Notes: generated from the letters alone by a model not told the origin. 62,693 bases of DNA, filler included, from Nitrospinota bacterium (GCA_030620925.1; 13 parts of 13 records of this genome joined end to end with filler, not necessarily neighbours in it); one strand, 5' to 3'. Counted from the first letter of the whole stretch, positions 3,856-49,060 are shown. Program-made: numbers and translations.

Positions 3856-3955
3856 NNNNNNNNNNNNNNNNNNNNNNNNNNNNNNNNNNNNNNNNNNNNT
3901 TAATTAATTAANNNNNNNNNNNNNNNNNNNNNNNNNNNNNNNNNNNNNNNNNNNN
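3856..3955. other. Artificial contig spacer (first of 12)
   Basis: N44-TTAATTAATTAA-N44 with stops in all six frames. It recurs at 8301, 13074, 22097, 27306, 30145, 36601, 41344, 45242, 51793, 56649 and 59679, each 100 nt. Confidence 0.99.
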
Positions 3956-4105: not shown

Positions 4106-4499
4106 AGGAATTAGGGGTGTCTTCGTGATTAGAATTTTAGCGTTCAATCAACCCGTAAATAAGCGAGATTTATAGCGCTAAATACTTGAAATTAAAGGGT
4201 TTACAGGTAATTAACGGTTGCCGGGCCGCACGGTGTAAACTATTGATATTAAACGCATTATGTAGGGTCAGAGGTTGCTTAAGCAAGGGGGTGGGTAGGG
4301 CAACCCTTGGGGAAAAAAATGAATTCCCCTTGAACTTGTTCGAGGGAATGAATGTCTAATAGTTTATATAGGTTCTAATGAGTTCAGTCCTGAGGTTTTT
4401 GGGATGACTTTTTTCTCCAGGCCGGTTATTATTTAAATTAATGCAAATGTAGTGTCCGAGCGGTTAAGCCGTTAAGACTATTCGAAAGGAGAACTAACA

Positions 4500-5006
4500 T
4501 TGGGCAAAAAGAAAAAGAACAGGAGGGCCGGCGCCCCGAGAGGAAAGGCGGCCCGGGTACAAAAGAAGAACAGCCGCAGCGGCTTGATTATGGCGGTAAT
4601 TGTCGGCGCCATGGTTGCGGTGGGTATCTACATGCTGACTAGCTCCAGAGGGGAAAAAGGCGTTACGGCCGAAAACTCCGGGAGCACGTCCGGCGTAGTA
4701 AAGGCCTCGGACCAGCCGTACAAGTTAAGGGAAACCCGGCCTACACTCTCGCCCGCCCTTTTCGTGGGCCGCGCGGCCGAAGCCTATCGAGTGGCGAAAA
4801 AAATTCCGGAAGTTCTAGACCATCTCTACTGTTACTGCCGATGCGCCGAGAACTTCGGCCATAAGAGCCTGCTCTCCTGTTACGCAGATAAACACGCCTC
4901 CACGTGAGGCGTTTGCATGGAAGAAGCGCTGTTAGCGCTTCAAATGCACATGCAAGGCAAATCCCCCGCAGAGATTCAGAAGGCAATAGACAAGCGGTTC
5001 GGTTAA
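4500..5006 (+). CDS. Membrane-anchored CYCxC/PCYCGC-family protein, predicted selenoprotein (Sec at TGA 4905-4907, UxxC)
   Basis: TTG start with an AAAGGAG RBS; basic N-terminus plus one TM helix; LYCYCRC..GHKSLLSCY..HAST-[TGA]-GVCMEEALLALQMHMQGKSPAEIQKAIDKRFG-TAA. A SECIS-like hairpin follows the TGA. Confidence 0.85.
4908..4958 (+). promoter_or_regulatory. Putative bacterial SECIS element
   Basis: Perfect stem GAAGCGCT (4923-4930), loop GTT, AGCGCTTC (4934-4941). The loop starts with G about 23 nt after the UGA. Lower stem TTTGCATG (4912-4919) pairs with CATGCAAG (4949-4956). Confidence 0.75.
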
Positions 5007-5007
5007 T

Positions 5008-5547
5008 ATGAGCAGTGACCCCGTACGGCGTGAAGAGCAGGAGCAGAAGGGGATAACCCGTCGAAAGTTTTTCCAATGGTGCGGCTGGGCCGGTTTCTGG
5101 GTTGCAGCGGGGGCATCGATTTACTCCTTTTTCCGATTCATGAAGCCGAGGGCGCTTTTCGAGCCGCCCGCCCTATTCCGCGCCGGCCGGGCGGAGGACT
5201 ACCCCGGTGGCACGGTCAGCGAAAAGTGGAAGAAAGAACAGAAGGTCTGGATCGTCCATAGCCGGGAGGGCGTCTACGCCCTGGCTTCCATCTGCACGCA
5301 CCTAGCCTGCACCCCCAACTGGTCGGAAGAAGAACGTCTGTTCAAATGCCCGTGCCATGGGAGCGTTTTCAGCCTTGAGGGCGACGTAGTGGCCGGGCCT
5401 GCCCCTGAGCCGCTCTACAGGGTGCCGGTGCAGTTCACAGACGAGGGCGAGTTGGTAGTAGGCACAGGGCTGCACGGCATACGCCTCTCCAGCCAGAGCA
5501 ATAAAGAGCCGAAGCGGAGCAGCAGCCATTATCTTCTGCGGGTGTGA
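5008..5547 (+). CDS. Rieske [2Fe-2S] subunit of a Rieske/cytochrome b complex
   Basis: Tat motif TRRKFF plus TM helix; CTHLAC and CPCHGS boxes. Confidence 0.95.
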   Translation: MSSDPVRREEQEQKGITRRKFFQWCGWAGFWVAAGASIYSFFRFMKPRALFEPPALFRAGRAEDYPGGTVSEKWKKEQKVWIVHSREGVYALASICTHLACTPNWSEEERLFKCPCHGSVFSLEGDVVAGPAPEPLYRVPVQFTDEGELVVGTGLHGIRLSSQSNKEPKRSSSHYLLRV

Positions 5548-5690
5548 TCGGATTTTTAAATTTGCAGTTGTATGCAGAAATTTTTTATAGGATTTAGCCC
5601 TGCCTGCGCGGGGGTTTTTCCGAAAGAGTCTTCATCAAATTTCATATTCCCTGTTAACCGACCCGGGGTGAGGAAAGAACAAGGGGGGAA

Positions 5691-6443
5691 ATGGCGAAGT
5701 TCAGGGATTGGATTACGGGGACGCAGGTCTGGAAGTCCATCGTCAGGCACGGGTACCCGGATACCCGAACGAATCGGATGCTCACCATCCTCAGCAACTT
5801 CTTCCTGCACGTCCATCCGGTTACCGTCAATGAGCGGTATATTCGCGTCCGCCACAGTTGGTGCATGGGAGGTATCTCCTTCCTCCTGTATATAATACTG
5901 GTGGTAACGGGCATACTGCTCATGTTCTACTACCGGCCCACCATAGAGTTCGCCTACCAGGATATAAAGGACCTGCATTTTTCAGTCGCTTACGGCGATA
6001 TCTTAAGGAACATGCACCGCTGGGCCGGCCACGCCATGGTGTTTACCGTGGCGGCGCACATGGCCATTGTCTTTTATACGGGGGCCTACAAACCGCCCCG
6101 TGAGTTCAACTGGGTGGTGGGCGTTCTGCTCCTCTTTCTGACACTGTTTTTGAGCTTCACCGGCTACCTGCTGCCCTGGGACCAGTTGTCCTACTGGGCC
6201 GTTACCGTGGGCACCAGTATGATAAAAGCCTTCCCTCTATTGGGGTCGGAAGGCCCGTTTAGCCGACTGGACGGCGAATCGGATATCGGATTTCTTTTCG
6301 TGGGAGGCCGCACCATAGGGCAGAGCACGCTGCTGCGGTTCTACGTATTACACGTGGCGTTTCTGCCGTTTCTGATAAGCGTCGTGATGCTGGTGCATTT
6401 CTGGCGGGTGAGAAAGGACGGAAAGCTTACAAAAAAACTTTAA
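5691..6443 (+). CDS. Cytochrome b6-like N-terminal subunit (split cytochrome b)
   Basis: [47 protein letters not shown] and LLRFYVLHV motifs. Confidence 0.95.
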
Positions 6444-6493
6444 TCGTCGTCTAAAAGGAAAACCTTTTTTAATCACATCCAAAAGGTCGATCG

Positions 6494-7240
6494 ATGGAAG
6501 AAGAGATAACAGGAACGCCTTTTGAAGATTTACCGGATGAAGCTAAGGTGGGCGTGGAGGAGGATGAGGTTACCACCTTCCCACACCTGGTCTACAAAGA
6601 GTTTCTCTGCGCTCTTGCAGTGCTCATACTTTTTATTCTACTCTCGGTCTTCTTCCGGGCACCCCTGGAGGAAATGGCCGACCCTTCCCTTACCCCCAAC
6701 CCCTCCAAGGCTCCCTGGTATTTCGTAGGGCTTCAGGAGCTCCTGGTCTATTTTGATCCCTGGATCGCAGGGGTCATGATACCGCTGCTGATAATCGTGG
6801 GGTTGATGCTTATTCCCTATCTGGATACCAACCCGGATGGCGTCGAGGAATATACTTTCCGGAAGCGGAAACTGGCAATAATAACCTTCACCGTCGGCCT
6901 TGCCCTATGGTTTATCCTCATAGCCATCGGCTATTACATGAGAGGTCTCCACTGGCAGCTCTACTGGCCGTGGGAGAGCCGTGAGATGGTTAAGAACAGC
7001 GCTGAGGGGTTGCGCAGCTTACCGCTTTACGGGGGAATAGTCTTCCTGTCCATCTACTTCGGGTTGGGAATCTACTTACCGGCCAGGCTCAAGAGGGGTC
7101 TGTTGGAGGAGGTCGGAAGAGCGCGCTATGTTATACTCATGCTGCTGTTTCTGCTCATGGCCGGCGTGGTAATAAAGATAGTGTTAAGGCTGACCCTGAA
7201 CGTCAAATATATTCTGACCACTCCGTGGTTCAATATCTGA
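6494..7240 (+). CDS. Subunit IV-like (cytochrome b C-terminal) membrane protein
   Basis: FPHLV..E, APLEEMADP..TPNPSKAPWYFVGLQELL (PEWY-equivalent APWY), PYLD, and extra C-terminal TM helices. Confidence 0.9.
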   Translation: MEEEITGTPFEDLPDEAKVGVEEDEVTTFPHLVYKEFLCALAVLILFILLSVFFRAPLEEMADPSLTPNPSKAPWYFVGLQELLVYFDPWIAGVMIPLLIIVGLMLIPYLDTNPDGVEEYTFRKRKLAIITFTVGLALWFILIAIGYYMRGLHWQLYWPWESREMVKNSAEGLRSLPLYGGIVFLSIYFGLGIYLPARLKRGLLEEVGRARYVILMLLFLLMAGVVIKIVLRLTLNVKYILTTPWFNI

Positions 7241-7264
7241 CCGACTGAGGTCGTCCGTTTAAAA

Positions 7265-7302
7265 TAGGGCGACCGCCCCGCGGCACAGCGGGGTCGCCCT
7301 AC
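7265..7302. repeat. Intergenic REP-like hairpin inside the operon
   Basis: TAGGGCGACC...GGTCGCCCTA 10-bp stem; the minus strand begins GTAG. Confidence 0.6.
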
Positions 7303-7318
7303 TCCCAGCGGAAAGAAT

Positions 7319-8300
7319 ATGAACAGATATTTCGCCATTTTGGGCGTTGCCCTTGCCGTCGTCATAGTGCTGGTGATTCGTGCCGAACGCGGAAAAGAAT
7401 GGATGCGCTACCAGAAGGTTTTCATCCAGGAGCAGCGCTGCACGGCAGGGAAGGATTTGAAGCAGGCGGAGGGTGAGGACGCTAAAAGGCAGGCGGACGC
7501 GAAGAGCAAAAGCCTGCTTCCCGGGTTTCCGGAGATGAAGCAGGTCTATGTGAAGGAACTCGATCGTGCGGATCGATGCGTCAGCTGCCACCTGGGGATA
7601 GACGATCCCTCTTGCGCAAATGAGGAGAGACCGTTCAACACCCACCCCGGTAATTTCCTTAAAAAGCACCCTGTAGAGAAATACGGCTGTACCGTCTGCC
7701 ACGGCGGGCAGGGAATAGCCACCACCTATGATGAAGCCCACGGCACCACCAGGGATTGGCAGCAGCCTATATTAGATGAGCGCTACGCCTACGGCTACTG
7801 CGGCCGCTGCCACAAGGAACCCGACTTCCGCGCAGCTCCCCAGCTTACCGAGGGGAAGCGCCTGTTCCGTGAAAAGGGGTGCGCTGCGTGCCACGAGACG
7901 AAGGGGCACGAAAATATAAAAAAGATAGGCCCTGCCATCTCACTTATCGGTACCAAGGTAAACCGGGATTGGTTGACGGAGTACCTGCTCTCGCCCAAAA
8001 AGTACTGGAAAAAGACGAACATGCCCGATTACAAGTTCAAGAAAGAACAGGCTGAGGCCATCACAGCCTTTCTCATGACTTTAAGGGGCGAGACAGAGGC
8101 GAGGAACGGTGTACCGGAAGAATACAGGCCGTCCCTGGAAAAGGGGCGCGAGCTCTTCGCCGACGCCGGTTGCCTGACCTGCCATGAGGTGAGAGGGCTC
8201 TATTACAATGGCCCCATAGAAGCGCAAAAGATAGGGCCGGAGCTGACGCTGCTGGCGGCGAAGGTCAACCGGGACTGGCTGGTCTCTTATCTCCAGGACC
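7319..8300 (+). CDS. Membrane-anchored multiheme cytochrome c (at least 5 hemes; truncated)
   Basis: N-terminal TM helix; CVSCH, CTVCH, CGRCH, CAACH, CLTCH; repeated KIGP.....KVNRDWL..YL domains. Confidence 0.93.
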
Positions 8301-8400
8301 NNNNNNNNNNNNNNNNNNNNNNNNNNNNNNNNNNNNNNNNNNNNTTAATTAATTAANNNNNNNNNNNNNNNNNNNNNNNNNNNNNNNNNNNNNNNNNNNN

Positions 8401-14466: not shown

Positions 14467-15354
14467 TTATAAGAAGAACTTTTCAAGAGGTTTCCTATCA
14501 TGACAGCTCTGACACAGTTCCCTGGCTAAGTCTCTGGTGACCCGCCACATGTGCGGCATGTGGCAAATGGTGCAGTCGCCACCGGTGGCATCCAGGTGTA
14601 TGCCGTGTTTACCAAGCTCGACGATGGAGTTGTGGCATCGTAAACAATCTGTTGAAGTTGGTTTTATGCTCTTAGAATGCGGTTTATGGCACTCCATGCA
14701 GCGGAAGGCCATGGAGCCGTTCCGGGGCCAGAAATTTGCTCCGTCAAGGCCTTGTGATCGGGCTATCTTGGCATGACAGGAGAGACACCTTTCTCTGGTT
14801 GGTCTGAGGTCCGCTTGCTGGCCGCCGTAAGTATGGCAGCCGAGGCAGGCCATTCCTTCCATTCCCACGCCGTGCACCCTTTTTTCGATGTGGCAGTTTA
14901 CGCAGAAGCGTTCTTCGGTGACGAATTTGTGGAGTTCTGTCCCGTGACACTGGGTGCATTCCAACTGAGCCATGAACACGTGCCGGGCGTGCCCGTAGGA
15001 GCGGTTTATGGAAATGGCGGCGTCTCTGGTGAGATGGCATTCTCTGCAGATGTCTGAAGGCACGAGGAAGTGGCCGTAGCGCTCGCTCACCTCTTTGGGG
15101 TTGCTGAACAGGGTTCTTATCATCATCTTGTTCTTTTCGATGATGCTGGCTTCATGGCAGGTATGGCAGTTTATGCCGTTGTGCACGCTCGCTTTCCAGG
15201 CATCGAAGGCTTCGTCCATGAGGTGGCAGGACCTGCAAAATTCGGGGTTGTTTTCGGTGAAATCGTAAGCATAGAAGGCTACGGTTATGGCGCCTATGAC
15301 AACTATAACTCCCAGGATCACAGTTATAATCGACAGCTTGAAGGGGAATTTCAT
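14467..15354 (-). CDS. Membrane-anchored 11-heme cytochrome c with a NapC/NirT-like N-terminus
   Basis: TM helix, PEFCRSCHLM..W..SVH, and 11 CxxCH motifs (CRSCH CHTCH CRECH CTQCH CVNCH CLGCH CLSCH CMECH CLRCH CTICH CQSCH). Confidence 0.93.
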   Translation of the reverse strand: MKFPFKLSIITVILGVIVVIGAITVAFYAYDFTENNPEFCRSCHLMDEAFDAWKASVHNGINCHTCHEASIIEKNKMMIRTLFSNPKEVSERYGHFLVPSDICRECHLTRDAAISINRSYGHARHVFMAQLECTQCHGTELHKFVTEERFCVNCHIEKRVHGVGMEGMACLGCHTYGGQQADLRPTRERCLSCHAKIARSQGLDGANFWPRNGSMAFRCMECHKPHSKSIKPTSTDCLRCHNSIVELGKHGIHLDATGGDCTICHMPHMWRVTRDLARELCQSCHDRKPLEKFFL

Positions 15355-15416: not shown

Positions 15417-15797
15417 CTATTTAGAATGTTTAGCTATGGCGTGCTCAATCGCCGATTTAATTTCGTCTCCAGAAGTGGGTTTGACCAAATGGTAAAATAT
15501 CTTTCCCTTTCTTATCTGGCGCTGCGTCTCCAGGGAGTCTTCGCTGGTTATCGTGATTATGGGCAGAGTGTCGTCTATCTGGTTAATTATGGGAATGGTC
15601 TCCGCCCCACCTTCTCTATCCGGGTCCAATTCAAGGATTATAGCGTCATACTTATTTTTAAGTATTTGTTTTAATGCTTCGGTCAATTTCTCAATGAACT
15701 CAAGCCGATAGTTGGATGCACTCAGTAGTTCAGTAAGCTGGTTTCGAAAGTCGGCATCGCTGTTTAAGACAAGAATGTTTATCGTGTTGTTGCTCAT
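15417..15797 (-). CDS. Single-domain atypical response-regulator receiver
   Basis: CheY-fold pattern (PIITIT, LVKP), but the acidic pocket reads VLNSD and the acceptor position reads ILE. Confidence 0.85.
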   Translation of the reverse strand: MSNNTINILVLNSDADFRNQLTELLSASNYRLEFIEKLTEALKQILKNKYDAIILELDPDREGGAETIPIINQIDDTLPIITITSEDSLETQRQIRKGKIFYHLVKPTSGDEIKSAIEHAIAKHSK

Positions 15798-15870
15798 TTG
15801 ATGAATACAAAGCCATCTGTGTGTTTGAACTATCTACTACATTTTCCTTAGGGCATCTTCCTTATTCAGT

Positions 15871-15886
15871 TACAAAAATCGTGCCT
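15871..15886 (-). promoter_or_regulatory. Putative sigma-54 (-24/-12) promoter
   Basis: AGGCACG-ATTT-TTGTA versus consensus TGGCACG-N4-TTGCW; about 75 nt upstream of the receiver gene and next to an NtrC-type activator gene. Confidence 0.65.
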
Positions 15887-16008
15887 TTTGGAGTTGCGGC
15901 CCGGGATGATAGGAGAATTAGGTTATAAATCATTGAAAATATAAGTGAAGTCAGGGAACGTTGCGTTATAGAGAGATTGTGCGAAAATGGGTGTCGGGTG
16001 TTGTCGTC

Positions 16009-16021
16009 TGACAATATGTCA
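16009..16021. promoter_or_regulatory. Candidate enhancer palindrome for the sigma-54 activator
   Basis: TGACA-ATA-TGTCA about 125 nt upstream of the -24 box; more TGTC(A/G) half-sites at 16080-16101; IHF-like TTTCAATGATTTA (minus strand, about 15926-15938) lies between. Confidence 0.45.
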
Positions 16022-16098
16022 TGGCATTGTAGGGTGGTAAGTGCATAAACCCAGAGCCAGAGCCGGATGAGGGCTATTCTGTCGATTTGTCAGTAGTG

Positions 16099-17478
16099 TC
16101 ATGACTCTTTGTCGATGGACGCGGTATCGGGGATGCTGTATTCTCTTAGCTTCCGGTAGAGAGTCCGCTCGCTTATGTTCAGGGCTTTGGCGGCTTTCCC
16201 CCGGTGTCCGTTCATACGCTGGAGCACCTGAATAATATATTTTTTCTCCATTTCTTTGAGGGGGAGAAGGCTTCCCGATTCATCGTTCTCACCAGCATGG
16301 GCTGCCCTCCGGATGTTTGTAGGGAGGTCTTTGGGGCTAATATAGTCGTCTTCTGACATTATGATGGCCCTTTCGATGACGTTTTGCAGCTCACGTATGT
16401 TCCCGGGCCAGGAGTAGGCCATGAGCCTTTCCATGGCCTCGTCGGTTATGGACAGGTTCTTTTTCCCCGTAATGCTGGTATTTTCCATGAAATATTGGAC
16501 GAGGAGTGGAATGTCTTCCTTCCTCTCCCGTAGCGGTGGGATGGACATGGAGAAGACGTTGAGGCGGTAAAAGAGGTCTTCCCTGAACTGGCCGTTTGAC
16601 ACCATCTGGTAGAGGTCTCTGTTAGTGGCGGCGATTATCCTCACTTCCACCCTGATGTCTTTGGTGCTGCCCATGCGGCGGAAGGTCTTACTGTCCATCA
16701 CCCGCAGCATCTTGGCCTGGATTGCAGGGCTGATCTCTCCTATCTCGTCCATGACCAGCGTGCCGGTATCGGCCACCTCAAAAAGGCCGTGCTTTCTGCT
16801 GGCGGCCCCTGTATAAGCGCCTTTTTCGTGTCCGAACAGCTCGTTTTCCAGCAGGTTTTCCTGCAGGGAGCCGCAGTCGATGATAACGAAGGGGCGGTCT
16901 TTCATGGGGCTATGGTGGTGGATGGCTCTGGCGACTAATTCCTTGCCCACTCCGCTCTCCCCCATGATGAGGACAGTGGATTGGGCATTGGCCACCTTAT
17001 TGATAAGCTCCAGGACGTTCTTGATTGCCTGGCTGTGGCCTATTATCCCCTGGAATTCTTCCCTGCGGGCGAGCTCCTGTTTGAGCATAATGTTCTCTTT
17101 TCCTATGAGCTGTTTTTCGTAGGCTTTGGTGATGATTGTCTCCAGCTCTGAGAGGTTGCATGGTTTGGTTATGAAGTCGTAGGCTCCCTGTTTCATGGAA
17201 TTTATGGCGTTGTCCACTGTGGCGTAAGCGGTGAGCATTATTATCTCGATTTCGGGATTTATGTCTTTTATGGCTACCATCGTATCGAAGCCGCTCATTC
17301 CGGGCATCTTTATATCCAGCAATACCACGTTCAAGTTTTCTTCGGCCACCAGCTTCCGGGCCTCGTCTCCGTTGGCTGCGATGCTCACGTTGAACCCTAT
17401 AGAGGCCAGCTCTTCGCTCAGCACTTCTCTGAAGGTATCGTCATCATCTACTAAAAGGACTGCGATGTCCTCTTTCAT
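16099..17478 (-). CDS. Sigma-54-dependent response regulator (NtrC/AtoC family)
   Basis: Receiver (LVDDD, LLDIKMP), GESGVGKE, ELFGHEKGAYTGA, MDEIGE, FREDLFYRLNV, WPGNIREL and a Fis-type HTH. Confidence 0.97.
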   Translation of the reverse strand: MKEDIAVLLVDDDDTFREVLSEELASIGFNVSIAANGDEARKLVAEENLNVVLLDIKMPGMSGFDTMVAIKDINPEIEIIMLTAYATVDNAINSMKQGAYDFITKPCNLSELETIITKAYEKQLIGKENIMLKQELARREEFQGIIGHSQAIKNVLELINKVANAQSTVLIMGESGVGKELVARAIHHHSPMKDRPFVIIDCGSLQENLLENELFGHEKGAYTGAASRKHGLFEVADTGTLVMDEIGEISPAIQAKMLRVMDSKTFRRMGSTKDIRVEVRIIAATNRDLYQMVSNGQFREDLFYRLNVFSMSIPPLRERKEDIPLLVQYFMENTSITGKKNLSITDEAMERLMAYSWPGNIRELQNVIERAIIMSEDDYISPKDLPTNIRRAAHAGENDESGSLLPLKEMEKKYIIQVLQRMNGHRGKAAKALNISERTLYRKLREYSIPDTASIDKES

Positions 17479-19382
17479 ACCGCTTTTTCCTCCATGTCCG
17501 CCGGTTTTCCGGCTATCGGCAAACGCACGAAGAAATCCGTGCCCTCCCCGGGCGAGCTTTTAACGGAGACCGTTCCTCCAATTTTGTCCATCAGATTCCT
17601 GCAGATGTAGAGCCCCAGGCCTGTTCCCTTTCCGGGCGGTTTTCTGGTGAAAAAGGGTTCGAAGATTTTGCCCATATCCTCTTTCGCTATTCCCTTGCCT
17701 GTGTCGGAGATGGTCACCTGAATCAAGTTGTCTGACATAACGGTTCGGACGGTGAGGCAACCCCCCTCGTCTTCTATGGCTTGTATTGCGTTGAGTATGA
17801 GGTTGAAAAACACCTCTCGCAGGTCCGATTGATCCAGTTGCAAGAGGGGTACGGAGGGGTCTAAATCCTTCATTACTTCTATCTCACGGCGCGTCGATTC
17901 GGATTCCAGCAGGGAGATGGTCTCTTCCAGGCATTGGTTGACGTCCACGCTTTTTGTGGAGGGGATGGATTTTCTGGAAAGGAACAGGAGCTTATCGGTT
18001 ATTATCTTACATCTTTCAGCCTCTTTTTTGGAGAGGCCCAGGTATTTATTAAATTTGTTGAGCTCTTCGGGCACCAGGGGTGAGCTGGATTTCTTAAGCA
18101 TCCGCTGAAGCCCTTCGATGCAGGTGGTTATGGACGCCAGGGGGTTCTTTATCTCGTGAGATATGCCCGAGGCAAGCAGCCCCAGGGAAGCCAGGCGCTC
18201 GGAATGGATCAGCTCCGCTTCCAGTTTTTTCCTCTCTGTGATGTCCCTTATCACTTCCACCACCTGATATACGTTTCCCGCGCTGTCCTTTATGGGAGAA
18301 GCATAGATTTCAAGCTCTATCTCTTCATCCTTTGTGTTCCGGAAGCTCCTGATGGTTTTGTGAAGGGTGCCTGTGCGGAATGTCTCTTCGGCAAGGCAGT
18401 ACTGGTTGTCCGCCCCCTCTTCATTAAAGAGGGCGCCGCAGATTTTACCTACCAGTTCTTCCGTGGGACGCCCCATCAGATGCGAGACGGCATCATTTGC
18501 GGCTACTACACGATCCTCTCTGTTCACCACCAGAACCCCTTCGTCTATGCTGTTCACCAGTTTTTCCAGTTGCTCTTTCTGCAGTTTTATCTCTTTGATT
18601 TTTATGTATTCTTTCAGGTCTTCGGTCATCTGGTTGAAATTGTGGGCGAGCTGGGCCAGTTCGTCCGCCCCCCGTTCATCCACCATGGCGTCCAATTCTC
18701 CCCGGCCCACCCTGCTGGTATGTTTGAGGAAGTCGAACAGCCTGTGGATTACCAGTCTGTTCAACAGCAGCCAGAGCACGGCGGACATTACTCCGATGAC
18801 TATAAGTGTCCAGAGGAGGACTTTTTTGACGTTGGCCTTTAGCGCCTGGTTTACATCGGCCATGGAGAAATCCATCATCAGCACACCATTCAGTTTTTCA
18901 GACGCGTCGTGGCATCGATGGCATTCGGGATAGTTGAAGATGGGGTTGACGTTGCGGAAGACCTTCTCCCCGGAGGGGGTGGTATAGACGATCGTGGTGG
19001 CCCTGTTTTCCGGCTTATGTTGGTGGCAGATAAGGCAGGTGGTTTCCTCTCTGGTCATGTTTATCCCCACCATCACAGGGTCGGAGGCGAACTTAACGGT
19101 CCCTTTCTTGTCCAGTATCATGATATTTTGGAGGCTTTCCTCCTGAGCAAGCCTACTGATAACGCCGTCTATCATATCCAGATGATCGCCCAGCATGGCA
19201 TACTGGAGACTGCTCCTTATCAGGGCGCTGACGTTTGTGGTGGAGGTTCTGAGGCTTTCTATCCACTGCTCCCGCTGATAGCGGTAGAGCAGGTAGGTGG
19301 ATATACTGAGGATAATGGCCAGCGTAGCGACTATGCCTATGGTTATCTTGAAGTTCAGCCTGTCGAAAAATTTAATACCCAT
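17475..19382 (-). CDS. Sensor histidine kinase with two periplasmic CxxCH motifs, HAMP and PAS
   Basis: TM1, periplasmic region (CLICH, CHRCH), TM2, HAMP (DELAQLAHNFNQM), PAS, H-box SHEIKNPL, and N/G1/F/G2 boxes. Confidence 0.95.
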   Translation of the reverse strand: MGIKFFDRLNFKITIGIVATLAIILSISTYLLYRYQREQWIESLRTSTTNVSALIRSSLQYAMLGDHLDMIDGVISRLAQEESLQNIMILDKKGTVKFASDPVMVGINMTREETTCLICHQHKPENRATTIVYTTPSGEKVFRNVNPIFNYPECHRCHDASEKLNGVLMMDFSMADVNQALKANVKKVLLWTLIVIGVMSAVLWLLLNRLVIHRLFDFLKHTSRVGRGELDAMVDERGADELAQLAHNFNQMTEDLKEYIKIKEIKLQKEQLEKLVNSIDEGVLVVNREDRVVAANDAVSHLMGRPTEELVGKICGALFNEEGADNQYCLAEETFRTGTLHKTIRSFRNTKDEEIELEIYASPIKDSAGNVYQVVEVIRDITERKKLEAELIHSERLASLGLLASGISHEIKNPLASITTCIEGLQRMLKKSSSPLVPEELNKFNKYLGLSKKEAERCKIITDKLLFLSRKSIPSTKSVDVNQCLEETISLLESESTRREIEVMKDLDPSVPLLQLDQSDLREVFFNLILNAIQAIEDEGGCLTVRTVMSDNLIQVTISDTGKGIAKEDMGKIFEPFFTRKPPGKGTGLGLYICRNLMDKIGGTVSVKSSPGEGTDFFVRLPIAGKPADMEEKAV

Positions 19383-19939: not shown

Positions 19940-20401
19940 TCAATCTTCTTCCTCTTCTTCGCCCAGGAGGCCCTTCTCCCGGTATTCTTTTATCTCGTTG
20001 GTGAGCCATTCGGTTATGGCCTCGCCTCCGTGGACGCGGTCTTTCAGGTCTTCCTCAAGGTCGGTGGGCTCGATGACAACGAACCAGCCCTGCCCGTAGG
20101 GGTCTTCGTTGACCAGCCGAGGGTTCTTGAGCACCGTGTCGTTGTGTTCGATGACCTCCCCGTTAACGGGGGCCTTGAGCGGCCCGATATATTTACCCGC
20201 CTCCAGGGAACCGAAGGCTCGGCCTTTGCGCACCGACCTGCCCACCGGCATCAGCTTGATGTAGGCCACCGTGCCCGCGGACTGTTGGCCGAACATATCC
20301 AGACCCACGCGCACGTTTCCGTTCTCGATCCTGCTCCACAGGTGCTCCTTGGGGTCGTAATAGAGGTCGTCGGGCAGCTCGTATTTTTCCACGTTAGCCA
20401 T
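19940..20401 (-). CDS. Glycine-cleavage-H-like lipoate-binding protein (LbpA-like)
   Basis: LPDDLYYD..HLW, lipoyl-Lys motif SLEAGKYIGPLKAPVNGEV, VNEDPYGQGW. Confidence 0.9.
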   Translation of the reverse strand: MANVEKYELPDDLYYDPKEHLWSRIENGNVRVGLDMFGQQSAGTVAYIKLMPVGRSVRKGRAFGSLEAGKYIGPLKAPVNGEVIEHNDTVLKNPRLVNEDPYGQGWFVVIEPTDLEEDLKDRVHGGEAITEWLTNEIKEYREKGLLGEEEEED

Positions 20402-21605
20402 TTTTACGCGGGCCTCCCTTGAATATGCCCTTTTCCAGTACCAGCTCCACGATGTCTTTGATCTCCATGGCGGACTCTTCCGTGCTGACGCTGTTAAGCA
20501 GCATCCGTTTGCACTGCTGGCAGGCGGTGACCACCATCTGCGCGCCCGTGCTCTGCACGGCGTTTAAAAGATCGCAGGCGATCTTGTTGGTTACGTCGGC
20601 GTCGATCATCTCCAGGTCGCCGCCCCCGCCGCAGCAGTAGCCGCGCTCCCTGTTCTGGGGCAGCTCCACGAAATTTTTGGCCCCTGCTTTGATGACCTCC
20701 CTGGGAGGCTCGAAGACTTTCATGCCCCGGCCCAGGTCGCAGGGGTCGTGGTAGGTGGTAGTCTGCTCGATTTCCTTTATCTCCAGGCGGCCCTGTGTGA
20801 TGAGCCGGTGTATGTACTGCGTGGAGTGAAGCAGCTCCACACCTTCCAGTTTATAGTAGTTGTTCCAGGTATAATAGCAGGAAGGGCAGCTGAAGACCAC
20901 CGTCCGTGCGCCCAGATTTTCGAGTTTCTCCAGGTTGTGTTGGCGCAAGGCCTCCGCCTCCCCTGGCAGGCCGGCGATTATGAGGGGGAACCCGCAGCAC
21001 CACTCTTCTTCTCCCAGGACGGCGAAATCCTCGCCCGCCGCTTCCAGCAGACGCAGGAAAGAGGTGGGTATTTCCTGGACGGCCGGGGAGAAGGAGCCGA
21101 TGCAGCCCACGAAATAGAGAACGTCGGCCCTCTCTTTCTGATAAAGGTGGTCGGGGACGTCGTCCATGAACTCCACCCACATGGCTCTCTCTTCGTTGGG
21201 GTAGTCCAGGACGTTATGCTCTTTGCGGGTAATCTCTATAACTTGATCGAGTACTGCCGGAGCGTGGCCCCGCTCCACCAGCTCATGACGCACGGAAATC
21301 CACAGGTTCCGCTGGTCGATGTTGACCGGACAGACCTGCTGACAACGCCCGCACAGAGTACATAGATAGGTGTTCTCAGACAGGGTGGTGAGTTGGGGAG
21401 ACATGTCTCTATTTCTTTTCAACAGCCTGCCCAGCAGTCCTCGCTCCCTGCCTATGATCCTGCGCAGCATGCTGATCTTTTCGGCGGGAATATAGAGGTC
21501 CGCCGCTCCCTGCACGTTTATGGGGCAGGGATTCATGCACTCGCCGCATCGGGTGCAGGCGTCCAGCTCCATGAGTTGTTTAACGGAGAAGTTGGTGAGC
21601 GTCAT
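20394..21605 (-). CDS. HdrD-like Fe-S oxidoreductase (two [4Fe-4S] motifs plus two CCG domains)
   Basis: CTRCGECMNPCP, CTLCGRCQQVCP, YFVGC, EWCCG, SCPSC, YHDPCDLGR, CCGGGG, TACQQC. Confidence 0.93.
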   Translation of the reverse strand: MTLTNFSVKQLMELDACTRCGECMNPCPINVQGAADLYIPAEKISMLRRIIGRERGLLGRLLKRNRDMSPQLTTLSENTYLCTLCGRCQQVCPVNIDQRNLWISVRHELVERGHAPAVLDQVIEITRKEHNVLDYPNEERAMWVEFMDDVPDHLYQKERADVLYFVGCIGSFSPAVQEIPTSFLRLLEAAGEDFAVLGEEEWCCGFPLIIAGLPGEAEALRQHNLEKLENLGARTVVFSCPSCYYTWNNYYKLEGVELLHSTQYIHRLITQGRLEIKEIEQTTTYHDPCDLGRGMKVFEPPREVIKAGAKNFVELPQNRERGYCCGGGGDLEMIDADVTNKIACDLLNAVQSTGAQMVVTACQQCKRMLLNSVSTEESAMEIKDIVELVLEKGIFKGGPRKNG

Positions 21606-27482: not shown

Positions 27483-28046
27483 TCAGGAAACTAACTCCCA
27501 ACCTTTACGCAGCGCACCGGCGTTCAGCTCCATGAACTTCTCCTTCCCGTCCTGGCGCAGCTTCTCGGACAGACCCTGAAGCACGGTCTCCATGGGCAGT
27601 ACCTCCTCCGCCTTCAGATAGACGCCGAGGAGGACGAAATTAGCCGCCTGCTCCGAACCGAGCTCACGGGCCATCTCGGTGGCCGGCACCTCCAGCACCC
27701 GTATGTCATCCCGCTTCACCTCTTCCTTAATTATGGAGGCATCCATGATAAGGGCGCTCCCGGGGGCCATCTTTTCGACGTATAGGTCGAACGAATATTG
27801 GTCCATGACAACCGCGGCGGCGGGATTATCGACTATGGGCGAGCTTATCTCCTCCTGAGAAAAGACCACCGTGCATTCAGTAGGGCTGCCGCGCATGAAA
27901 GGGGACAGGACGGGGAACCAGGTGACATGCCGGTAATGGGGCATGAGCAATTCGGCCAAAAGCTTCCCGATCAACTGGGCACCCTGCCCTCCCATGCCTG
28001 CGATGACGACTTCTGAACCTTCGGTTGCTGCGGCCACGACCCTCAC
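27483..28046 (-). CDS. 2-oxoacid:ferredoxin oxidoreductase gamma subunit
   Basis: IAGMGGQG, MRG, ISSPIV and ANFVLLG motifs. Confidence 0.92.
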   Translation of the reverse strand: MRVVAAATEGSEVVIAGMGGQGAQLIGKLLAELLMPHYRHVTWFPVLSPFMRGSPTECTVVFSQEEISSPIVDNPAAAVVMDQYSFDLYVEKMAPGSALIMDASIIKEEVKRDDIRVLEVPATEMARELGSEQAANFVLLGVYLKAEEVLPMETVLQGLSEKLRQDGKEKFMELNAGALRKGWELVS

Positions 28047-28825
28047 TCCTCAGTCTCAAATACGTCGTCCACGTCCTTGAACTCACCCAGCGAATACTCC
28101 CGGAGCACTGTCTCCTCTATGTGTTTGTTGCAGTCCACAGGGGACATCTTCCAACCGGGCGGGCAGGCGGAAATTATCTCCAGCAGGCTATAGCCGACGT
28201 TATTCACCTGCTTCTGAAAGGCTTTCTTCATATATTTCCTGGTCTGAGCGAAGGCGGCGGGGGTGTGCACTGAGCTCCTGGCGGTATAGGCCACCCCCTT
28301 CATGGTGGCCATCATTTCGGGGACGTGGACGGGGAAGCCGAAGGTCTCGTAGTTGCGCCCGTCGGGTGTGGTGGTGGTATACTGGCCGAGTATGGTGGTG
28401 GGAGCGAGCTGTCCGCCGGTGGTGCCGTAGGTACCGTTGTTGAGGAAGATGGTGGTCAGCTTCTCGAAGCGGTTGGCGGCGTTGATGAGTTCCCCCATTC
28501 CGATGGCCGCCAGGTCACCATCCCCCTGTATGGTGAACACGATGTTCTCGCCGAAGCGGGCGTGTTTCAAGCCCGTAGCAACGTCCGGAGCCCGGCCGTG
28601 CAGCGCGGCTATCATATCCATCTTATAGAAAATAAAAGACGGGTAGCTGCATCCCACCGAGGTGACGCCGATCGCCTCATCCTCTATACCCATTTCTTCT
28701 ATGGTCTCCAGGATGAGGCGCAGTATTATCCCGTAGTGGCAGCCGGAACACCAGTGTGTAGGCTCGCCGGTCCACAGCTCTGGCGCTGAAAGCACCTTCT
28801 TTCTACCCGTCGCCTCATTGCTCAT
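28043..28825 (-). CDS. 2-oxoacid:ferredoxin oxidoreductase beta (TPP-binding) subunit
   Basis: WCSGC, HGRA..VATG, QGDGDLAAIG, NNGTYGTTGGQ and SACP motifs. Confidence 0.95.
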   Translation of the reverse strand: MSNEATGRKKVLSAPELWTGEPTHWCSGCHYGIILRLILETIEEMGIEDEAIGVTSVGCSYPSFIFYKMDMIAALHGRAPDVATGLKHARFGENIVFTIQGDGDLAAIGMGELINAANRFEKLTTIFLNNGTYGTTGGQLAPTTILGQYTTTTPDGRNYETFGFPVHVPEMMATMKGVAYTARSSVHTPAAFAQTRKYMKKAFQKQVNNVGYSLLEIISACPPGWKMSPVDCNKHIEETVLREYSLGEFKDVDDVFETEE

Positions 28826-32563: not shown

Positions 32564-34474
32564 TCAACCCTTGCTCCTCAGCACTCTCACGTCCCCTTTG
32601 CGAAAGGTGACCCTCTTGTTGTCGAAGTGCTCCAGCAGGGGGATGGCGTATTTGCGGGAAATATCCAGCAGGTCCCTGAACTGTGCGGCGGTGATTTCGC
32701 CATTCTGTTTTATGAATTCTATCAGTATCTCTTCGGCGCTGCTCAGGCTATCCCTGTGGAAGACTATTTTGTCCTTGACCCTGGCCACCACCCCTTCACT
32801 TATGAGAACCTGCAGCATCTCCCTACCCACCTGCTCGGAGATGGATAGACGGCTGAAGGCTTCTTGAGGAGACGGCGGTTGAAACCTGGAAGTCAGGAAT
32901 TCCTGCTCCAGTCGATGTTTGATCTCGGCCTGTTCTTCCTGGAGCTCCACCTTATGGGAGGCCGAGCGCACCAGGTCTTTTTCGACTACTACCTTCTTCC
33001 CATTTTCAAGATGCTCTATGCACCTGATGAACGCCCTCTCCGCAACCGGGGCCACTTTACTGCGCAGTTCTTCTCTGCTCATGCCCTTTTTGAGGGGGTT
33101 CGCCACATGGAAAGACGTAAGCTGTTCTTCAATGCTGCGGCCCATTTCCTCGAACAGTTGCCGGTGCATCACATGCACCTTATCTTCATCTATGACCACT
33201 GCGTCGCCTTTTTTCGAGAGGTCGTTTATAAGGCCCAGTAAGTCTTCCCGCGAGAGGTCGAATCTTGGGAAAAGCTCCTCCAGGCCGAGCCCTGATGACC
33301 CGGCATCCAGGAGCAGCTCCTCGAGCACCTCCCGGTGGGAGCTACTCTCCAGAATCTGGAGATGGTCTAATATTTCCTTTCGGTGCCGCCGATGTCTGGC
33401 GGTTTTTACATCCAGTATCTGTCCTCCGCCGATGGTAATGACCGGTGAGTAGCTACGAATTACGAAGCGGTCCCCGGGGAGGGCGCAGACAGGTTTTTCC
33501 AGGTAAAGCTGGATATACGCCTCGTCCCCCGGCTCAAGGTAATCTCTTTCCAGCAAGAGCACGCGGGCCATTATTTCAGCCGTACCATGATGGAACCGTA
33601 CTCTCCCCCTGTGCTTGATGGGATGAGCCGCCGAACCCAGGAGGGTCATCCTGGCATCGAGGAGTGTGGTGGGATGAAGCCTCTCGGGCAGAGAGATAAC
33701 GTCGCCTCGAATGATAGAGTTCTTGTCCGTGCCCGATAGATTGAGCGCCGTCCGCTGGCCCGCAGTAGCCTGAGACACTTTCTGGTTGTGAACCTGAACG
33801 CTGCGGATGCGTGTGCTCAGGTTATGGGGGAAAATTTCCACCTGGTCTTCGACGTTCACCGTCCCCGAGGTGAGCGTGCCGGTAATCACCGTTCCGAAAC
33901 CCTTCATGGTGAACACCCTGTCGATGGGCATCCTGAAGGGGGTGGAGATGTTCTTCGCCTCTATTTCTCCTGCCAGACGCGCCAGGTGGGTTTTAAGCTC
34001 CGGGATACCCTGGCCGGTTTTGGAGGAGGTCGTCAACAGAGTGCAGCTCTCGAGGAAGGTGCCCTTCATAAAATCCCTGACATCCTCTTCCACCATGGCC
34101 AGCCATTCCTCGTCCACCAGGTCCGTTTTGGTAATCACCGCCAGGCCGCTTTTGATCTGCAATAGCTGGCAGATGGCCATATGTTCCCTGGTCTGGGGCA
34201 TCACACCTTCATCGGCGGCCACTATCAGCGCCACCAGGTCTATGCCGCCCACACCGGCCAGCATGTTCTTAACGAAGCGCTCGTGCCCCGGCACGTCCAC
34301 TATGCCGATGCTGACGTCCTCTTCCAAATCCAGGTGGGCGAACCCCAGGTCTATGGTGATGCCGCGCTCCTTTTCCTCCTTGAGCCTGTCGGTATCTATG
34401 CCGGTGAGGGCTTTTATCAGCTCGGTTTTACCGTGATCGATATGCCCGGCGGTCCCCAGAATGACCCTTTTCAT
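32564..34474 (-). CDS. selB: Selenocysteine-specific elongation factor
   Basis: [28 protein letters not shown], and a winged-helix C-terminus [13 protein letters not shown]. Confidence 0.97.
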
Positions 34475-34504: not shown

Positions 34505-35944
34505 CTAGCGCAGCTCCTCAGCTAATTGTTTTACAGCGGTGGCGATCTCTTGCAGTTCGTCTTCCTGAACGGTGCGCATGTCCAGAAGGAACCTATCCTG
34601 GCTTATGCGGCCCAGGATGGGGATTTTAGCTTTTCGCAGTCGTTCGTCTATCTCTTCGGGGCTCAACGCGGTAGAGGTCAGCGCGGCGACGGCGGTGGGG
34701 AACTCCACTGCAGGAAGTGAGCCGCCTCCCGCCTGGGTGACGTCGCGAGATACGCTCACGCTCAGCTTTTCACCCATACAGTCTTTCATCATAACCGCCA
34801 GCGCCAAAGCTTTGCGCTCCTGTTCTTCCACGGGCCGGGAGAGCATTTCCATGGTGGGTATTCGCATCAATGCCTCACCTCCCTCTAGATATAGATGCAG
34901 CGTGGCTTCCAGGGCGGCAATGGTAAACTTATCCACCCGCAGGGCTCGCGCAAGTGGGTTGGCGGCTAACTGGCTGACGCAGGCGGCTTTCCCCAGGATG
35001 ATTCCCGCCTGGGGACCGCCCAGGAGTTTGTCGCCGCTGAAGGTGATGAGGTCGATACCCGTCTTGATCTTATCCTGAACCGTGGGCTCGGGGATGATCA
35101 TATCCCCCGCTGAAGGAGTCAGGTTGCCGCTTCCCAGGTCTTCCATGACCGGTATCTGGAATTCCCTTCCTAACTCCACCAGCTCTTCCAGGGTCACTTC
35201 GGTGGTGAACCCCACTATCCTGTAGTTGCTGGTATGGACCTTGAGCAGGAGGGCGGTGTTATCGGTGACGGCGGATGCGTAATCCTTGAGGTGCGTTCGG
35301 TTGGTGGTGCCCACCTCCTTGAGTTGCGCACCGCTCTTGCTCATTATATCCGGAATCCTGAAGGAGCCGCCGATTTCTATCAGCTCGCCCCGTGAGACGA
35401 TGACTTCTTTGTCTTTGGCCAGGGTATCCAGGGCCAGGAGAACGGCTGCGGCGTTGTTGTTCACCACCAGGGCCGCTTCGGCGCCTGTGAGTCGGGTTAA
35501 TATATCCTCCAGGTGGCTGTGGCGGGAGCCTCTTTGACCGGCTTCCAGGTCGTATTCCAGGTTGGAATATGCGCCGCCCACGGCGAGGACGTTGCGCAGC
35601 ACCTCCTGCCCCAGAACGGCGCGGCCTAAATTGGTGTGCAGTATGATGCCAGTGGCGTTGATTACTCTCTTGAGGCTGAACCTCTGCGAGCTGCGCAGCT
35701 TCTCCCCCACCTCCAGGGCCACCTTTTCCGCCGTAAGTCCTTCGGACGCCGGATTTGCGCCTGCGTCTCCGGCGAGTATCTCTTTCCGTTTGGCATCCAG
35801 GGTATCCCGCACGCAGTCCAGAACGAACCAGCGCGGGAAATCTTTCATGAGCGCCTCCATGTCCTCTACCTGGATCACGGCGTCAACCGAGGGAAGCGTT
35901 CGCAACAGTTCCTGTTTTTTTTCATCCGTCATTATGTTATCCAC
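34505..35944 (-). CDS. selA: L-seryl-tRNA(Sec) selenium transferase
   Basis: VINATGIILHTNLGRA, YSNLEYDL, VNNNAAA, EIGGSFRIP, EVGTTN, KVHTSNY and FSGDKLLGGPQAG motifs. Confidence 0.97.
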   Translation of the reverse strand: MDNIMTDEKKQELLRTLPSVDAVIQVEDMEALMKDFPRWFVLDCVRDTLDAKRKEILAGDAGANPASEGLTAEKVALEVGEKLRSSQRFSLKRVINATGIILHTNLGRAVLGQEVLRNVLAVGGAYSNLEYDLEAGQRGSRHSHLEDILTRLTGAEAALVVNNNAAAVLLALDTLAKDKEVIVSRGELIEIGGSFRIPDIMSKSGAQLKEVGTTNRTHLKDYASAVTDNTALLLKVHTSNYRIVGFTTEVTLEELVELGREFQIPVMEDLGSGNLTPSAGDMIIPEPTVQDKIKTGIDLITFSGDKLLGGPQAGIILGKAACVSQLAANPLARALRVDKFTIAALEATLHLYLEGGEALMRIPTMEMLSRPVEEQERKALALAVMMKDCMGEKLSVSVSRDVTQAGGGSLPAVEFPTAVAALTSTALSPEEIDERLRKAKIPILGRISQDRFLLDMRTVQEDELQEIATAVKQLAEELR

Positions 35945-48429: not shown

Positions 48430-48990
48430 CTAATTCGCGTAGTTGTAGCCTGCGGAAAGGGCCTCCTGGTTGATGGTAAGGAAGCCGTCCTTTAAGACCG
48501 CTTCTTTGCTCTTGGTCATGGCGCTCGCCACCAACTCCAGGGGCAAAGCGCCGCTCAATTTGAGGTACTTGCCCAGAAGAACCAGGTTGGTTATCTTTAT
48601 GGTGAGGATGGATTGGGCCATCTCGCTGGCGGGAACGGCTATTACTTCAATGTCTTCTCGCCCCACCATCTCCGGGGACACCATACAGCTATCTATGATC
48701 AGCGTCCCCCCCGGCATCAGGCAGTCCCGGTATAAATCCATGGCCACAGGGTCCATGATGACCAGTGTCCGCGGCCGGGCGACGAGCGGTGAAAGGATAT
48801 TCTCATCGGAGAGGATGACGTAACAGACCACTCGCCCTCCACGGGTATATGTGTCGTAAGAGGGGAGCCAGGAAACATGCTTATAGACGTTCGATCCCGC
48901 CTTGATCATCAGGTCCCCCATGGTAAGGACACCCTGCCCCCCGTAGCCTGCAATCACAAGCTCCATGGTCTCTTTTTCTTCTTCAGCCAT
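48430..48990 (-). CDS. 2-oxoacid:ferredoxin oxidoreductase gamma subunit
   Basis: IAGYGGQG, WLPSY...RGG and TNLVLLG motifs. Confidence 0.92.
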   Translation of the reverse strand: MAEEEKETMELVIAGYGGQGVLTMGDLMIKAGSNVYKHVSWLPSYDTYTRGGRVVCYVILSDENILSPLVARPRTLVIMDPVAMDLYRDCLMPGGTLIIDSCMVSPEMVGREDIEVIAVPASEMAQSILTIKITNLVLLGKYLKLSGALPLELVASAMTKSKEAVLKDGFLTINQEALSAGYNYAN

Positions 48991-49060
48991 ATTTCCTTCC
49001 CCCCTTAAGGGGCAATTTTAAATCAGACTTTAAGTATACTGCGCCCTGCATCGTGCATCA

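Follow-up and report, generated by a model that had tools for sequence, protein, structure and literature searches.

A CYCXC-family selenoprotein gene heading a Rieske/cytochrome b6 operon in a Nitrospinota bacterium: a candidate redox maturation factor for c-type cytochromes

We describe a gene for a small membrane-anchored protein of the CYCXC family, predicted to contain selenocysteine (Sec), that stands at the head of an operon for a Rieske iron-sulfur protein, a b6-type cytochrome b, a subunit IV-like protein and a multihaem c-type cytochrome in a Nitrospinota bacterium (GCA_030620925.1). The stretch of DNA analysed, here called the window, measures 62,693 bases and consists of 13 contigs of one genome bin joined by 12 linkers of N/TTAATTAATTAA at 3856-3955, 8301-8400 and ten further sites; since these are separate contigs, gene adjacency across the joins is artificial. 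The operon lies on the contig at 3956-8300 (4,345 bases), at whose two limits its genomic context ends. We propose, with a probability only slightly above one half (about 0.52), that the CYCXC protein is a periplasmic selenol/thiol redox maturation factor for c-type cytochromes that has been recruited to the Rieske operon. Both the selenoprotein family and the operon type are already catalogued, and it is the arrangement of these known families that is new.

The contig opens with some 540 bases devoid of any convincing gene and then carries five co-oriented open reading frames (ORFs), with these features:

4404..4432, plus strand: promoter-like site, a weak consensus match (9/12 hexamer matches)
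4500..5006, plus strand: CYCXC-family selenoprotein gene, 168 codons (PF13798 and NF041379 profile matches)
4905..4907, plus strand: in-frame UGA, predicted to be read as Sec (U136 of the UGVC motif; Cys forms align)
4909..4958, plus strand: hairpin resembling a selenocysteine insertion sequence (SECIS), core stem 4923-4930 / 4934-4941, apical loop GUU
5008..5547, plus strand: Rieske [2Fe-2S] subunit gene (TRRKFF; CTHLAC...CPCHGS boxes; both disulfide cysteines present)
5598..5613, plus strand: terminator-like hairpin in the Rieske/cytochrome b spacer, a consensus match only, with GTTTTTCC directly after it
5691..6443, plus strand: cytochrome b6-like subunit of the four-helix type (PF00033, 145.7 bits)
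6494..7240, plus strand: subunit IV-like membrane subunit, the C-terminal half of a split cytochrome b (PF00032)
7319..8300, plus strand: multihaem c-type cytochrome, 5 CxxCH, 327 codons, cut by the contig end (profiles, motif count)

The ORFs and their Pfam and NCBIfam matches agree with the gene order given in the initial annotation, which had also claimed at least five haems for the cytochrome c (five CxxCH motifs were counted) and a first junction of 1 nt, as is found between the TAA at 5004-5006 and the Rieske ATG at 5008. The CYCXC gene starts with TTG and has AAAGGAG 7 nt upstream. Four promoter-like sites were seen in the region against 2.6 expected, so the one at 4404..4432 is not significant alone. 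The same promoter scan, in which an independent Rieske promoter was sought, gave no promoter-like site between the CYCXC and Rieske genes, in line with the co-transcription that had been put forward, and inspection of the sequence before the Rieske ATG revealed no evident Shine-Dalgarno sequence. As the latter coincides with a 1-nt junction, translational coupling is suggested; the CYCXC and Rieske genes would share one transcript, and their translation would probably be coupled. The spacer between the Rieske and cytochrome b genes (5548-5690) measures 143 nt; in L042, the closest relative among the loci surveyed below, it is 42 nt shorter and the hairpin is poorly conserved. The hairpin at 5598-5613 might set the expression of the CYCXC/Rieske pair apart from that of the rest of the operon.

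Decoding of UGA136 as Sec by means of the downstream hairpin is well supported by comparison with related loci. Species-representative genomes, when scanned, yielded 273 pattern matches; tblastn confirmed 219 loci, and the best 80 of these were analysed. Counts out of 81 refer to these 80 plus the window, and L078, which duplicates L077 on one contig with 96.3% identity, was excluded from the tree and from adjacency counts. The aligned codon is TGA in 39/81 loci and TGC or TGT in 42/81. Without readthrough the window ORF spans 4500-4907; readthrough adds 32 codons, as far as the TAA, and these are conserved in frame and can be aligned with the C-termini of the 42 Cys forms. The window hairpin is predicted at -22.6 kcal/mol (z -2.3), with a core stem beginning 17 nt downstream of the UGA, and over the 48 bases that follow the codon the Sec loci have a mean of -16.2 kcal/mol (n=37) compared with -11.4 kcal/mol for the Cys loci (n=42; Mann-Whitney p=1.6e-8). 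The stem of the Sec loci has the consensus GAGGCGC-N5-GCGUCUC, with five consensus pairs kept in 36-37 of the 37 sequences, and in the window and L042 it reads GAAGCGC/GCGCUUC, one compensatory double change from G-C to A-U that preserves the pairing. Moreover, the bin encodes SelA and SelB:

32567..34474, minus strand: SelB, selenocysteine-specific elongation factor (TIGR00475, 416 bits against a cutoff of 242)
34508..35944, minus strand: SelA, seryl-tRNA(Sec) selenium transferase (TIGR00474, 611 bits against a cutoff of 268)

The contig that carries them differs from the CYCXC contig, and the two are tied by binning only. TGA is not generally reassigned in this organism, because it is the commonest ordinary stop in the bin, terminating 23 of 41 complete ORFs, the Rieske gene among them. 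That the TGA under study is also a true stop, giving a 135-residue protein and leaving the downstream 32 codons untranslated, seems highly improbable. Gene callers do give the 135-residue form, and many database homologues of 130-137 residues stop exactly at ...HAST, whereas full-length ones of 150-170 residues continue with CxxC. ARAGORN detected no tRNA at all, hence no tRNA-Sec, in the 62-kb window; SelD is absent from the profile matches in the same 62 kb, the rest of the genome being outside the data; and at E ≤ 5 an Rfam search of the contig returned three chance-level matches and no SECIS family. A true stop is nevertheless hard to reconcile with 32 codons conserved in frame, with a Cys placed exactly at the TGA in 42 relatives, with a hairpin conserved in 37 Sec loci, with a curated NCBIfam model that calls the family a (seleno)protein, and with the presence of SelA and SelB in the bin. 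The Sec call of the initial annotation is therefore retained.

The window protein matches NF041379 (OS_HP4) with 130.5 bits (cutoff 90) and PF13798 (PCYCGC) with 54.4 bits (cutoff 25). It has the same CYCxC as these families, and a UxxC with Sec where Cys forms have Cys; as a protein it is no different from them, and what is added here is the gene context. Its motifs, C111-Y-C113-R-C115 and U136-G-V-C139, have cysteines that are invariant in alignments of 49 and 78 sequences, and the invariant or near-invariant positions comprise E78, D107, C111, C113, C115, H121, C127, D130, H132, U/C136 and C139. Residues 1-28 include 12 K/R and no D/E, and the sole strongly hydrophobic stretch, residues 28-46, corresponds to one transmembrane helix. 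We infer an N-in/C-out topology with a cytoplasmic K/R-rich tail, the transmembrane helix and a periplasmic, all-alpha, Cys/Sec-rich domain (residues ~75-168), since by the positive-inside rule a K/R-rich, acid-free tail before the helix leaves the C-terminal domain facing the periplasm. The UxxC protein would thus lie, as had been claimed, on the side of the Rieske domain, whose TRRKFF motif predicts export by the twin-arginine translocation pathway. AlphaFold2, run with the 78-sequence alignment, gave a compact all-helical domain (predicted local distance difference test, pLDDT, 94.6; predicted template modelling score, pTM, 0.85); the full-length model scores 78.8, its tail and linker being disordered. 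Foldseek found no PDB match at E ≤ 0.001 for either the full-length or the domain model, and a family-profile search of PDB sequences gave nothing meaningful (best E 0.31).

The family is large: when its profile was searched exhaustively against 1.84 billion cluster representatives, 1,821 of them matched at E ≤ 0.001; for the Cys paralogue from L001, the protein atlas matches were PCYCGC clusters only. One tandem two-domain member of 268 aa, P0122, has lost most of the conserved cysteines by replacement, those of the CYCxC and the first Cys of the CxxC included, and may be a redox-dead derivative. Two selenoproteome reviews list the family as a UxxC selenoprotein without a function and contain 0 occurrences of 'Rieske'. 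In Creative Commons (CC)-licensed PMC papers and bioRxiv, the only statement found about its function was 'unknown function', and no link of CYCXC/PCYCGC to cytochrome c biogenesis or to Rieske complexes was found. The name 'OS_HP4' has 0 occurrences in PMC2398784 and PMC1976440; the latter uses OS_HP for 'Olavius symbiont's hypothetical protein', and for OS_HP1-3 only.

The gene context of the family points to cytochrome c biogenesis. ORFs in the flanks were called crudely (longest non-overlapping, at least 70 codons) and clustered by all-against-all BLASTP, and cluster representatives were named with Pfam and NCBIfam. With ResA-like, CcsA/CcmC/F, CcdA, ResB, CcmH, CcmB and CcmE taken as the biogenesis set, at least one such gene is present in the flanks of 53/81 loci, or 47/81 if ResA-like proteins are not counted, and in 43/80 loci the immediate neighbour is a biogenesis gene or the transmembrane-anchored tetratricopeptide repeat (TPR) gene of the operon. 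The most frequent neighbour clusters are a ResA-like thiol-disulfide oxidoreductase (42 loci), CcsA/CcmC/CcmF (Cytochrom_C_asm; 32), CcdA (DsbD_TM; 31), the transmembrane-anchored TPR protein (28) and ResB (27), followed by any Rnf subunit (20), a family that we call c8 (12), a NapH-like polyferredoxin (11), CcmH (8) and CcmA/B/E (about 5). Three gene orders recur. Cys forms are found in the order [RnfCDGEAB] CYCXC TPR ResB CcsA ResA CcdA Glrx-like, with the TPR gene directly downstream of CYCXC in 27/42 of them (gaps of -4 to 199 nt); Sec forms of Desulfobacterales follow CcmF..CcmE CcmA CcmB CcmC CcmG CcdA CcmH CYCXC c8; and in Rokubacteria, NC10 and some Nitrospinota the CYCXC gene is followed by the NapH-like gene. 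The family thus occurs in both System I and System II clusters.

Several features of these neighbourhoods recall CcmH. As is predicted for CYCXC, CcmH, which reduces apocytochrome c thiols in System I (solved domains 2HL7 and 2KW0), is a membrane-anchored, small periplasmic helical domain with a CxxC, and the CYCXC gene lies directly after ccmH in five loci. The pairing of CYCXC with the TPR protein in ResB/CcsA operons resembles that of CcmH with CcmI in System I. In Foldseek, the CcmH three-helix bundles with the CxxC, 2HL7 and 2KW0, rank 2 and 7 with the full-length model and 8 and 16 with the domain (TM-score 0.42-0.54, probability 0.15-0.28, E 2.7-8.3), and are the sole biologically related chains among the top fold matches. 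Four further invariant Cys and two invariant His set CYCXC apart from CcmH, and it coexists with CcmH rather than replacing it. Moreover, when 19 long family members among 150 listed were scanned, three were found to have a second domain N-terminal to the CYCXC domain. These fusions, of 387, 236 and 226 residues, score 21.6, 28.0 and 24.3 bits respectively with PF03918 against a cutoff of 25, and we call the domain CcmH-like because just one of the three reaches the Pfam cutoff; the 387-residue protein also has a CxxCH between two CYCXC domains. Another of the 19 combines a CYCXC domain with the C-terminal part of a solute-binding protein profile, and several others are tandem or N-terminally extended forms with no second named domain. 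A word-index search had given no longer fused forms, which is weak evidence, and it was the exhaustive representative search that did find longer ones.

Because both haem-attachment systems, thiol-redox neighbours, a CcmI-like TPR pairing and CcmH-like fusions come together around this family, we provisionally assign it to c-type cytochrome maturation, and within maturation the family signal points to the periplasmic thiol-reduction branch. The genes of the CcdA to ResA/CcmG thiol-reduction pathway are the commonest CYCXC neighbours and the same periplasmic dithiol/disulfide exchange is proposed for both, although CYCXC is predicted to be all-alpha and not a thioredoxin fold. CYCXC would act with the CcdA, ResA/CcmG and CcmH route, keeping the cysteines of apocytochrome CxxCH sites reduced for haem attachment. 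The initial annotation had considered a thiol-redox maturation factor (for the Rieske disulfide, haem ci or CxxCH sites), a metal chaperone and an electron entry/exit module; of these three, a thiol-redox maturation factor for CxxCH sites is the best supported, given the 53/81 loci with biogenesis genes and the CcmH-like fusions. Maturation of haem ci was rejected on topology: this haem is attached on the cytoplasmic side, and the CYCXC domain is predicted to be periplasmic.

Other genes recur beside CYCXC. The c8 family (~290 residues; L004-L009, L011, L015, L016, L022, L053 and L073; for example L011:931-1812), whose gene immediately follows CYCXC in 11 loci, combines a signal peptide with a periplasmic domain of ~210 residues, one transmembrane helix and a cytoplasmic zinc ribbon, beyond which it gave no Pfam or NCBIfam match. 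The NapH/MauN-like polyferredoxin membrane protein (Fer4_5; 670-760 residues) is a second partner of the family, paired with CYCXC in 11 loci, mostly of Rokubacteria, NC10 and Nitrospinota (L003, L012, L028, L035, L050, L053, L062, L064, L065, L071, L073). In Cys-form loci such as L044, L046 and L054 a complete RnfCDGEAB set lies directly upstream of the CYCXC-TPR-ResB-CcsA operon, and RnfB is the immediate upstream gene in 16/42 Cys forms. NfeD-like membrane proteins are encoded near CYCXC in three loci (L004:2802-3149, L025, L060).

Linkage of CYCXC to Rieske/cytochrome b genes, conservation of which had been proposed as a check, is real but partial. Searched by tblastn with the window proteins, 12/81 loci including the window have a cytochrome b or subunit IV gene in their flanks, and a Rieske-domain gene is present in 16/81; L015 is an extra case, as its contig begins inside a homologous multihaem gene. 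Direct adjacency was found only in the window (1 nt) and in L042 (7 nt), in both with CYCXC upstream of Rieske. In the other arrangements CYCXC is divergent from Rieske (L010), lies downstream of the multihaem gene (L002, L022, L009, L015), is convergent with c8 in between (L004, L005, L007, L008), or is several kb away from Rieske/cytochrome b (L062, L017). These five arrangements are spread over Nitrospinota, Tectomicrobia, Desulfobacterales, NC10 and a single 'Deltaproteobacteria' metagenome-assembled genome (MAG). Leaving out the window and L078, linkage to cytochrome b or subunit IV was found in 10/37 Sec loci compared with 1/42 Cys loci, for which Fisher's p=0.002 ignores relatedness and is descriptive only. 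In a low-resolution tree (95 columns, 37/77 branches unresolved), all linked loci except L017 and L062 fall in the half with most of the Sec forms, and these typically read ...HAST-U. The window has its nearest relatives among Nitrospinota MAGs, with L042 as the closest; the 5' part of the L042 CYCXC gene is a masked run of N (L042:~6930-7015), so that the comparison covers this protein without its N-terminus. In one Nitrospinota MAG, a Cys paralogue (L001) lies within a CcmF-CcmH-ResA cluster and a Sec paralogue (L042) stands at the head of the Rieske operon; a second MAG carries three or four paralogues, next to different redox modules (L024, L035, L077/L078). The L077/L078 unit, ~8.8 kb repeated with 96.3% identity at a 33-kb offset on the 45.8-kb contig JBHIBA010000005.1, carries two Rieske genes in tandem together with genes for CYCXC, CcmF and a monohaem cytochrome c, and may reflect either a true duplication or an artefact of assembly.

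The products of the remaining operon genes have the residues expected of their families. The Rieske protein (PF00355, 42 bits against a cutoff of 20.3) is predicted to be anchored by a single helix with its domain in the periplasm, and its RR motif and its CTHLAC and CPCHGS boxes are invariant in 10 aligned sequences (R18, R19, C96, H98, C101, C114, C116, H117). Among solved structures, the cytochrome b is closest to cytochrome b6 chains (E 1.8e-42); it retains all four haem His, and its sole Cys aligns with b6 Cys35, the binding site of haem cn/ci. The subunit IV-like protein scores 25.3 bits with PF00032 against a cutoff of 20.7. The truncated multihaem cytochrome is 37% identical over residues 4-327 to the product of L002 4428-5399, where the full-length homologue has 681 aa and 8 CxxCH.

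Two published systems are close to this operon. An operon for a Rieske protein, a split b6-type cytochrome b and an octahaem cytochrome c has been described in Nitrospina gracilis and also in Kuenenia stuttgartiensis and Methylomirabilis oxyfera (PMC3578206). The window has the same genes in the same order (an Fe-S subunit, then a split cytochrome b of the b6 type, then a multihaem c); the differences are that the main text of that paper names no CYCXC or selenoprotein gene and that the cytochrome, octahaem there, is cut at five haems in the window. In Geobacter sulfurreducens, the extKLMNOPQS cluster encodes a cytochrome predicted to contain Sec next to genes for Rieske and cytochrome b (PMC5877670). 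The cluster combines, as the window does, a predicted selenoprotein with a Rieske protein (ExtO), a cytochrome b (ExtP), c-type cytochromes and a membrane protein (ExtQ), but there the Sec protein is the multihaem cytochrome ExtKL and in the window it is the CYCXC protein. ExtP, of this selenite/tellurite reduction module, is also the best NCBIfam match of the window cytochrome b, with 268.1 bits, below the cutoff of 290; the other Ext scores are below cutoff as well (ExtQ 55.5 against 150 for the subunit IV-like protein, ExtS 19.2 against 100). The earlier statement that bc1/b6f/Qcr complexes have no selenoprotein subunit thus needs qualifying in view of this predicted Geobacter protein.

A direct role in the complex was considered, with the Sec protein as a putative extra subunit acting as a periplasmic module for electron entry or exit, or for regulation. 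The 1-nt junction with no promoter-like site in between, the same order with a 7-nt gap in L042, and a terminator-like hairpin after Rieske that would group the latter with CYCXC are all compatible with it, as is a Rieske/cytochrome b linkage that survives five rearrangements across three or more phyla. CYCXC and Rieske are moreover both single-helix anchored with periplasmic domains, and other neighbours of the family (Rnf, the NapH-like polyferredoxin, CcdA) are membrane systems that send electrons outward. On the other hand, 69/81 loci have neither a cytochrome b nor a subunit IV gene in their flanks, the linked ones often have CYCXC on the other strand or separated by genes, and the operons of Nitrospina, Kuenenia and Methylomirabilis name, in the main text of the paper, just the Fe-S protein, split cytochrome b and octahaem c (PMC3578206). 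We judge such a role distinctly unlikely, and a shade less probable still its stronger form, in which CYCXC is a putative stable, stoichiometric periplasmic subunit, translationally coupled to Rieske, and the assembly or activity of a quinol-oxidising complex depends on the supply of selenium; this form, if true, would add a selenium-dependent variant to the bc/b6f superfamily.

The linkage is best explained by a dedicated maturation factor, recruited for the many CxxCH sites of the cytochrome and for the Rieske disulfide. In this scheme a CYCXC copy would have been placed by the Rieske/b6/subunit IV/multihaem-c operon in a mostly Sec-using clade (Nitrospinota, Tectomicrobia, Desulfobacterales), and would presumably service the periplasmic redox subunits of the operon, namely the multihaem CxxCH sites and perhaps the Rieske disulfide. 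Gene order, family membership, the Sec/Cys correspondence, the hairpin, the neighbourhood statistics and the fusions are observed in the sequences; the topology, the redox chemistry, the substrate and a role as maturation factor rather than stable subunit are deduced from them and are put forward as probable at most.

Several observations weigh against this proposal. The CYCXC/Rieske contact is rare, with 2/80 distinct loci only; the locus counts are not independent events, since the loci are phylogenetically related, and they cover the best 80 of the 219 confirmed loci. The biogenesis linkage is weaker in Sec forms (17/39) than in Cys forms (36/42), and neither Ccm nor Res genes are present on the contig of the window operon. 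Homology to CcmH was rejected as unproven, with no PF03918 match to the window protein at E ≤ 0.01, hhalign probabilities of 7.3% (transmembrane helices only) and 3.6% (CxxC on CxxC), and Foldseek E above 1. The Rieske linkage may also be partly hitch-hiking, because the Ccm cluster of Desulfobacterales itself abuts the Rieske operon. Taken to its limit, this last point would make the Rieske adjacency devoid of specific meaning, with CYCXC as a general envelope redox factor carried along with Ccm genes in some lineages; the position of that Ccm cluster, which places CYCXC at the junction of two clusters, the scarcity of direct contacts and the non-independence of the counts would all fit such an account. 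We nevertheless consider it improbable: the window, L042, L010 and L002, from Nitrospinota and Tectomicrobia, are linked without flanking Ccm genes and in three arrangements, the excess of linkage in Sec over Cys forms (relatedness uncorrected) speaks against it, and neither Rieske/cytochrome b genes nor genes for cytochrome c biogenesis are present in the remaining ~58 kb of the window.

The chemistry of the conserved residues is a further point of doubt. Sec at the first position of UxxC fits the attacking nucleophile of a dithiol/disulfide exchanger, but Sec may also act as a metal ligand, so that this position is not decisive; the six Cys/Sec and two His that fall within 30 residues would be as appropriate to a metal or Fe-S site as to a dithiol. 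CYCXC could then be a putative periplasmic handler of Cu, Zn, Fe or Fe-S, as chaperone or buffered site, with Sec as a ligand, an alternative that we regard as unlikely yet worth weighing. C111, C113, C115, C127, U/C136, C139, H121 and H132 are the invariant or nearly invariant candidate ligands, and a designed zinc-induced helical dimer was among the top fold matches, though not significantly. Small YHS-domain proteins are encoded near CYCXC in three loci (L004:1923-2228, L016, L053), hinting at a metal connection and counting against a purely thiol-based role. Several catalogued UxxC/UxxU selenoproteins are predicted metal binders (PMC9312934, PMC13188914), and a Firmicute PCYCGC lipoprotein gene adjoins one for an Fe3+-binding protein (PMC13068155). 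In contrast, no copper, zinc or iron transporter and no oxidase-assembly gene is present among the recurrent neighbour clusters, which consist of haem-attachment and thiol-redox genes, and the fusions are with CcmH-like and not with metal-trafficking domains.

Elsewhere in the bin, a gene for an NrfH/DmsE-like multihaem cytochrome (window 14470-15354, minus strand) lies beside a response regulator and a sigma-54 two-component pair (15420-19382). Two separate gene sets for 2-oxoacid:ferredoxin oxidoreductases (27486-29888 and 48433-50901, both minus strand) and a DsrK/HdrD-like Fe-S protein (20397-21605) fit an anaerobic lifestyle. An IS3-family transposase C-terminal fragment is found at a contig end (56396-56647, minus strand).

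If the proposed maturation role is true, a widespread and uncharacterised family with a selenium-using branch gains a testable role in c-type cytochrome maturation, which bears on how apocytochrome thiols and haem stay reduced in organisms with dozens of multihaem cytochromes. It would also mean that a dedicated copy is wired to a Rieske/b6/multihaem-c operon such as those of Nitrospina, anammox bacteria and Methylomirabilis, for which the CYCXC gene would be a concrete candidate for an assembly factor or an extra subunit.

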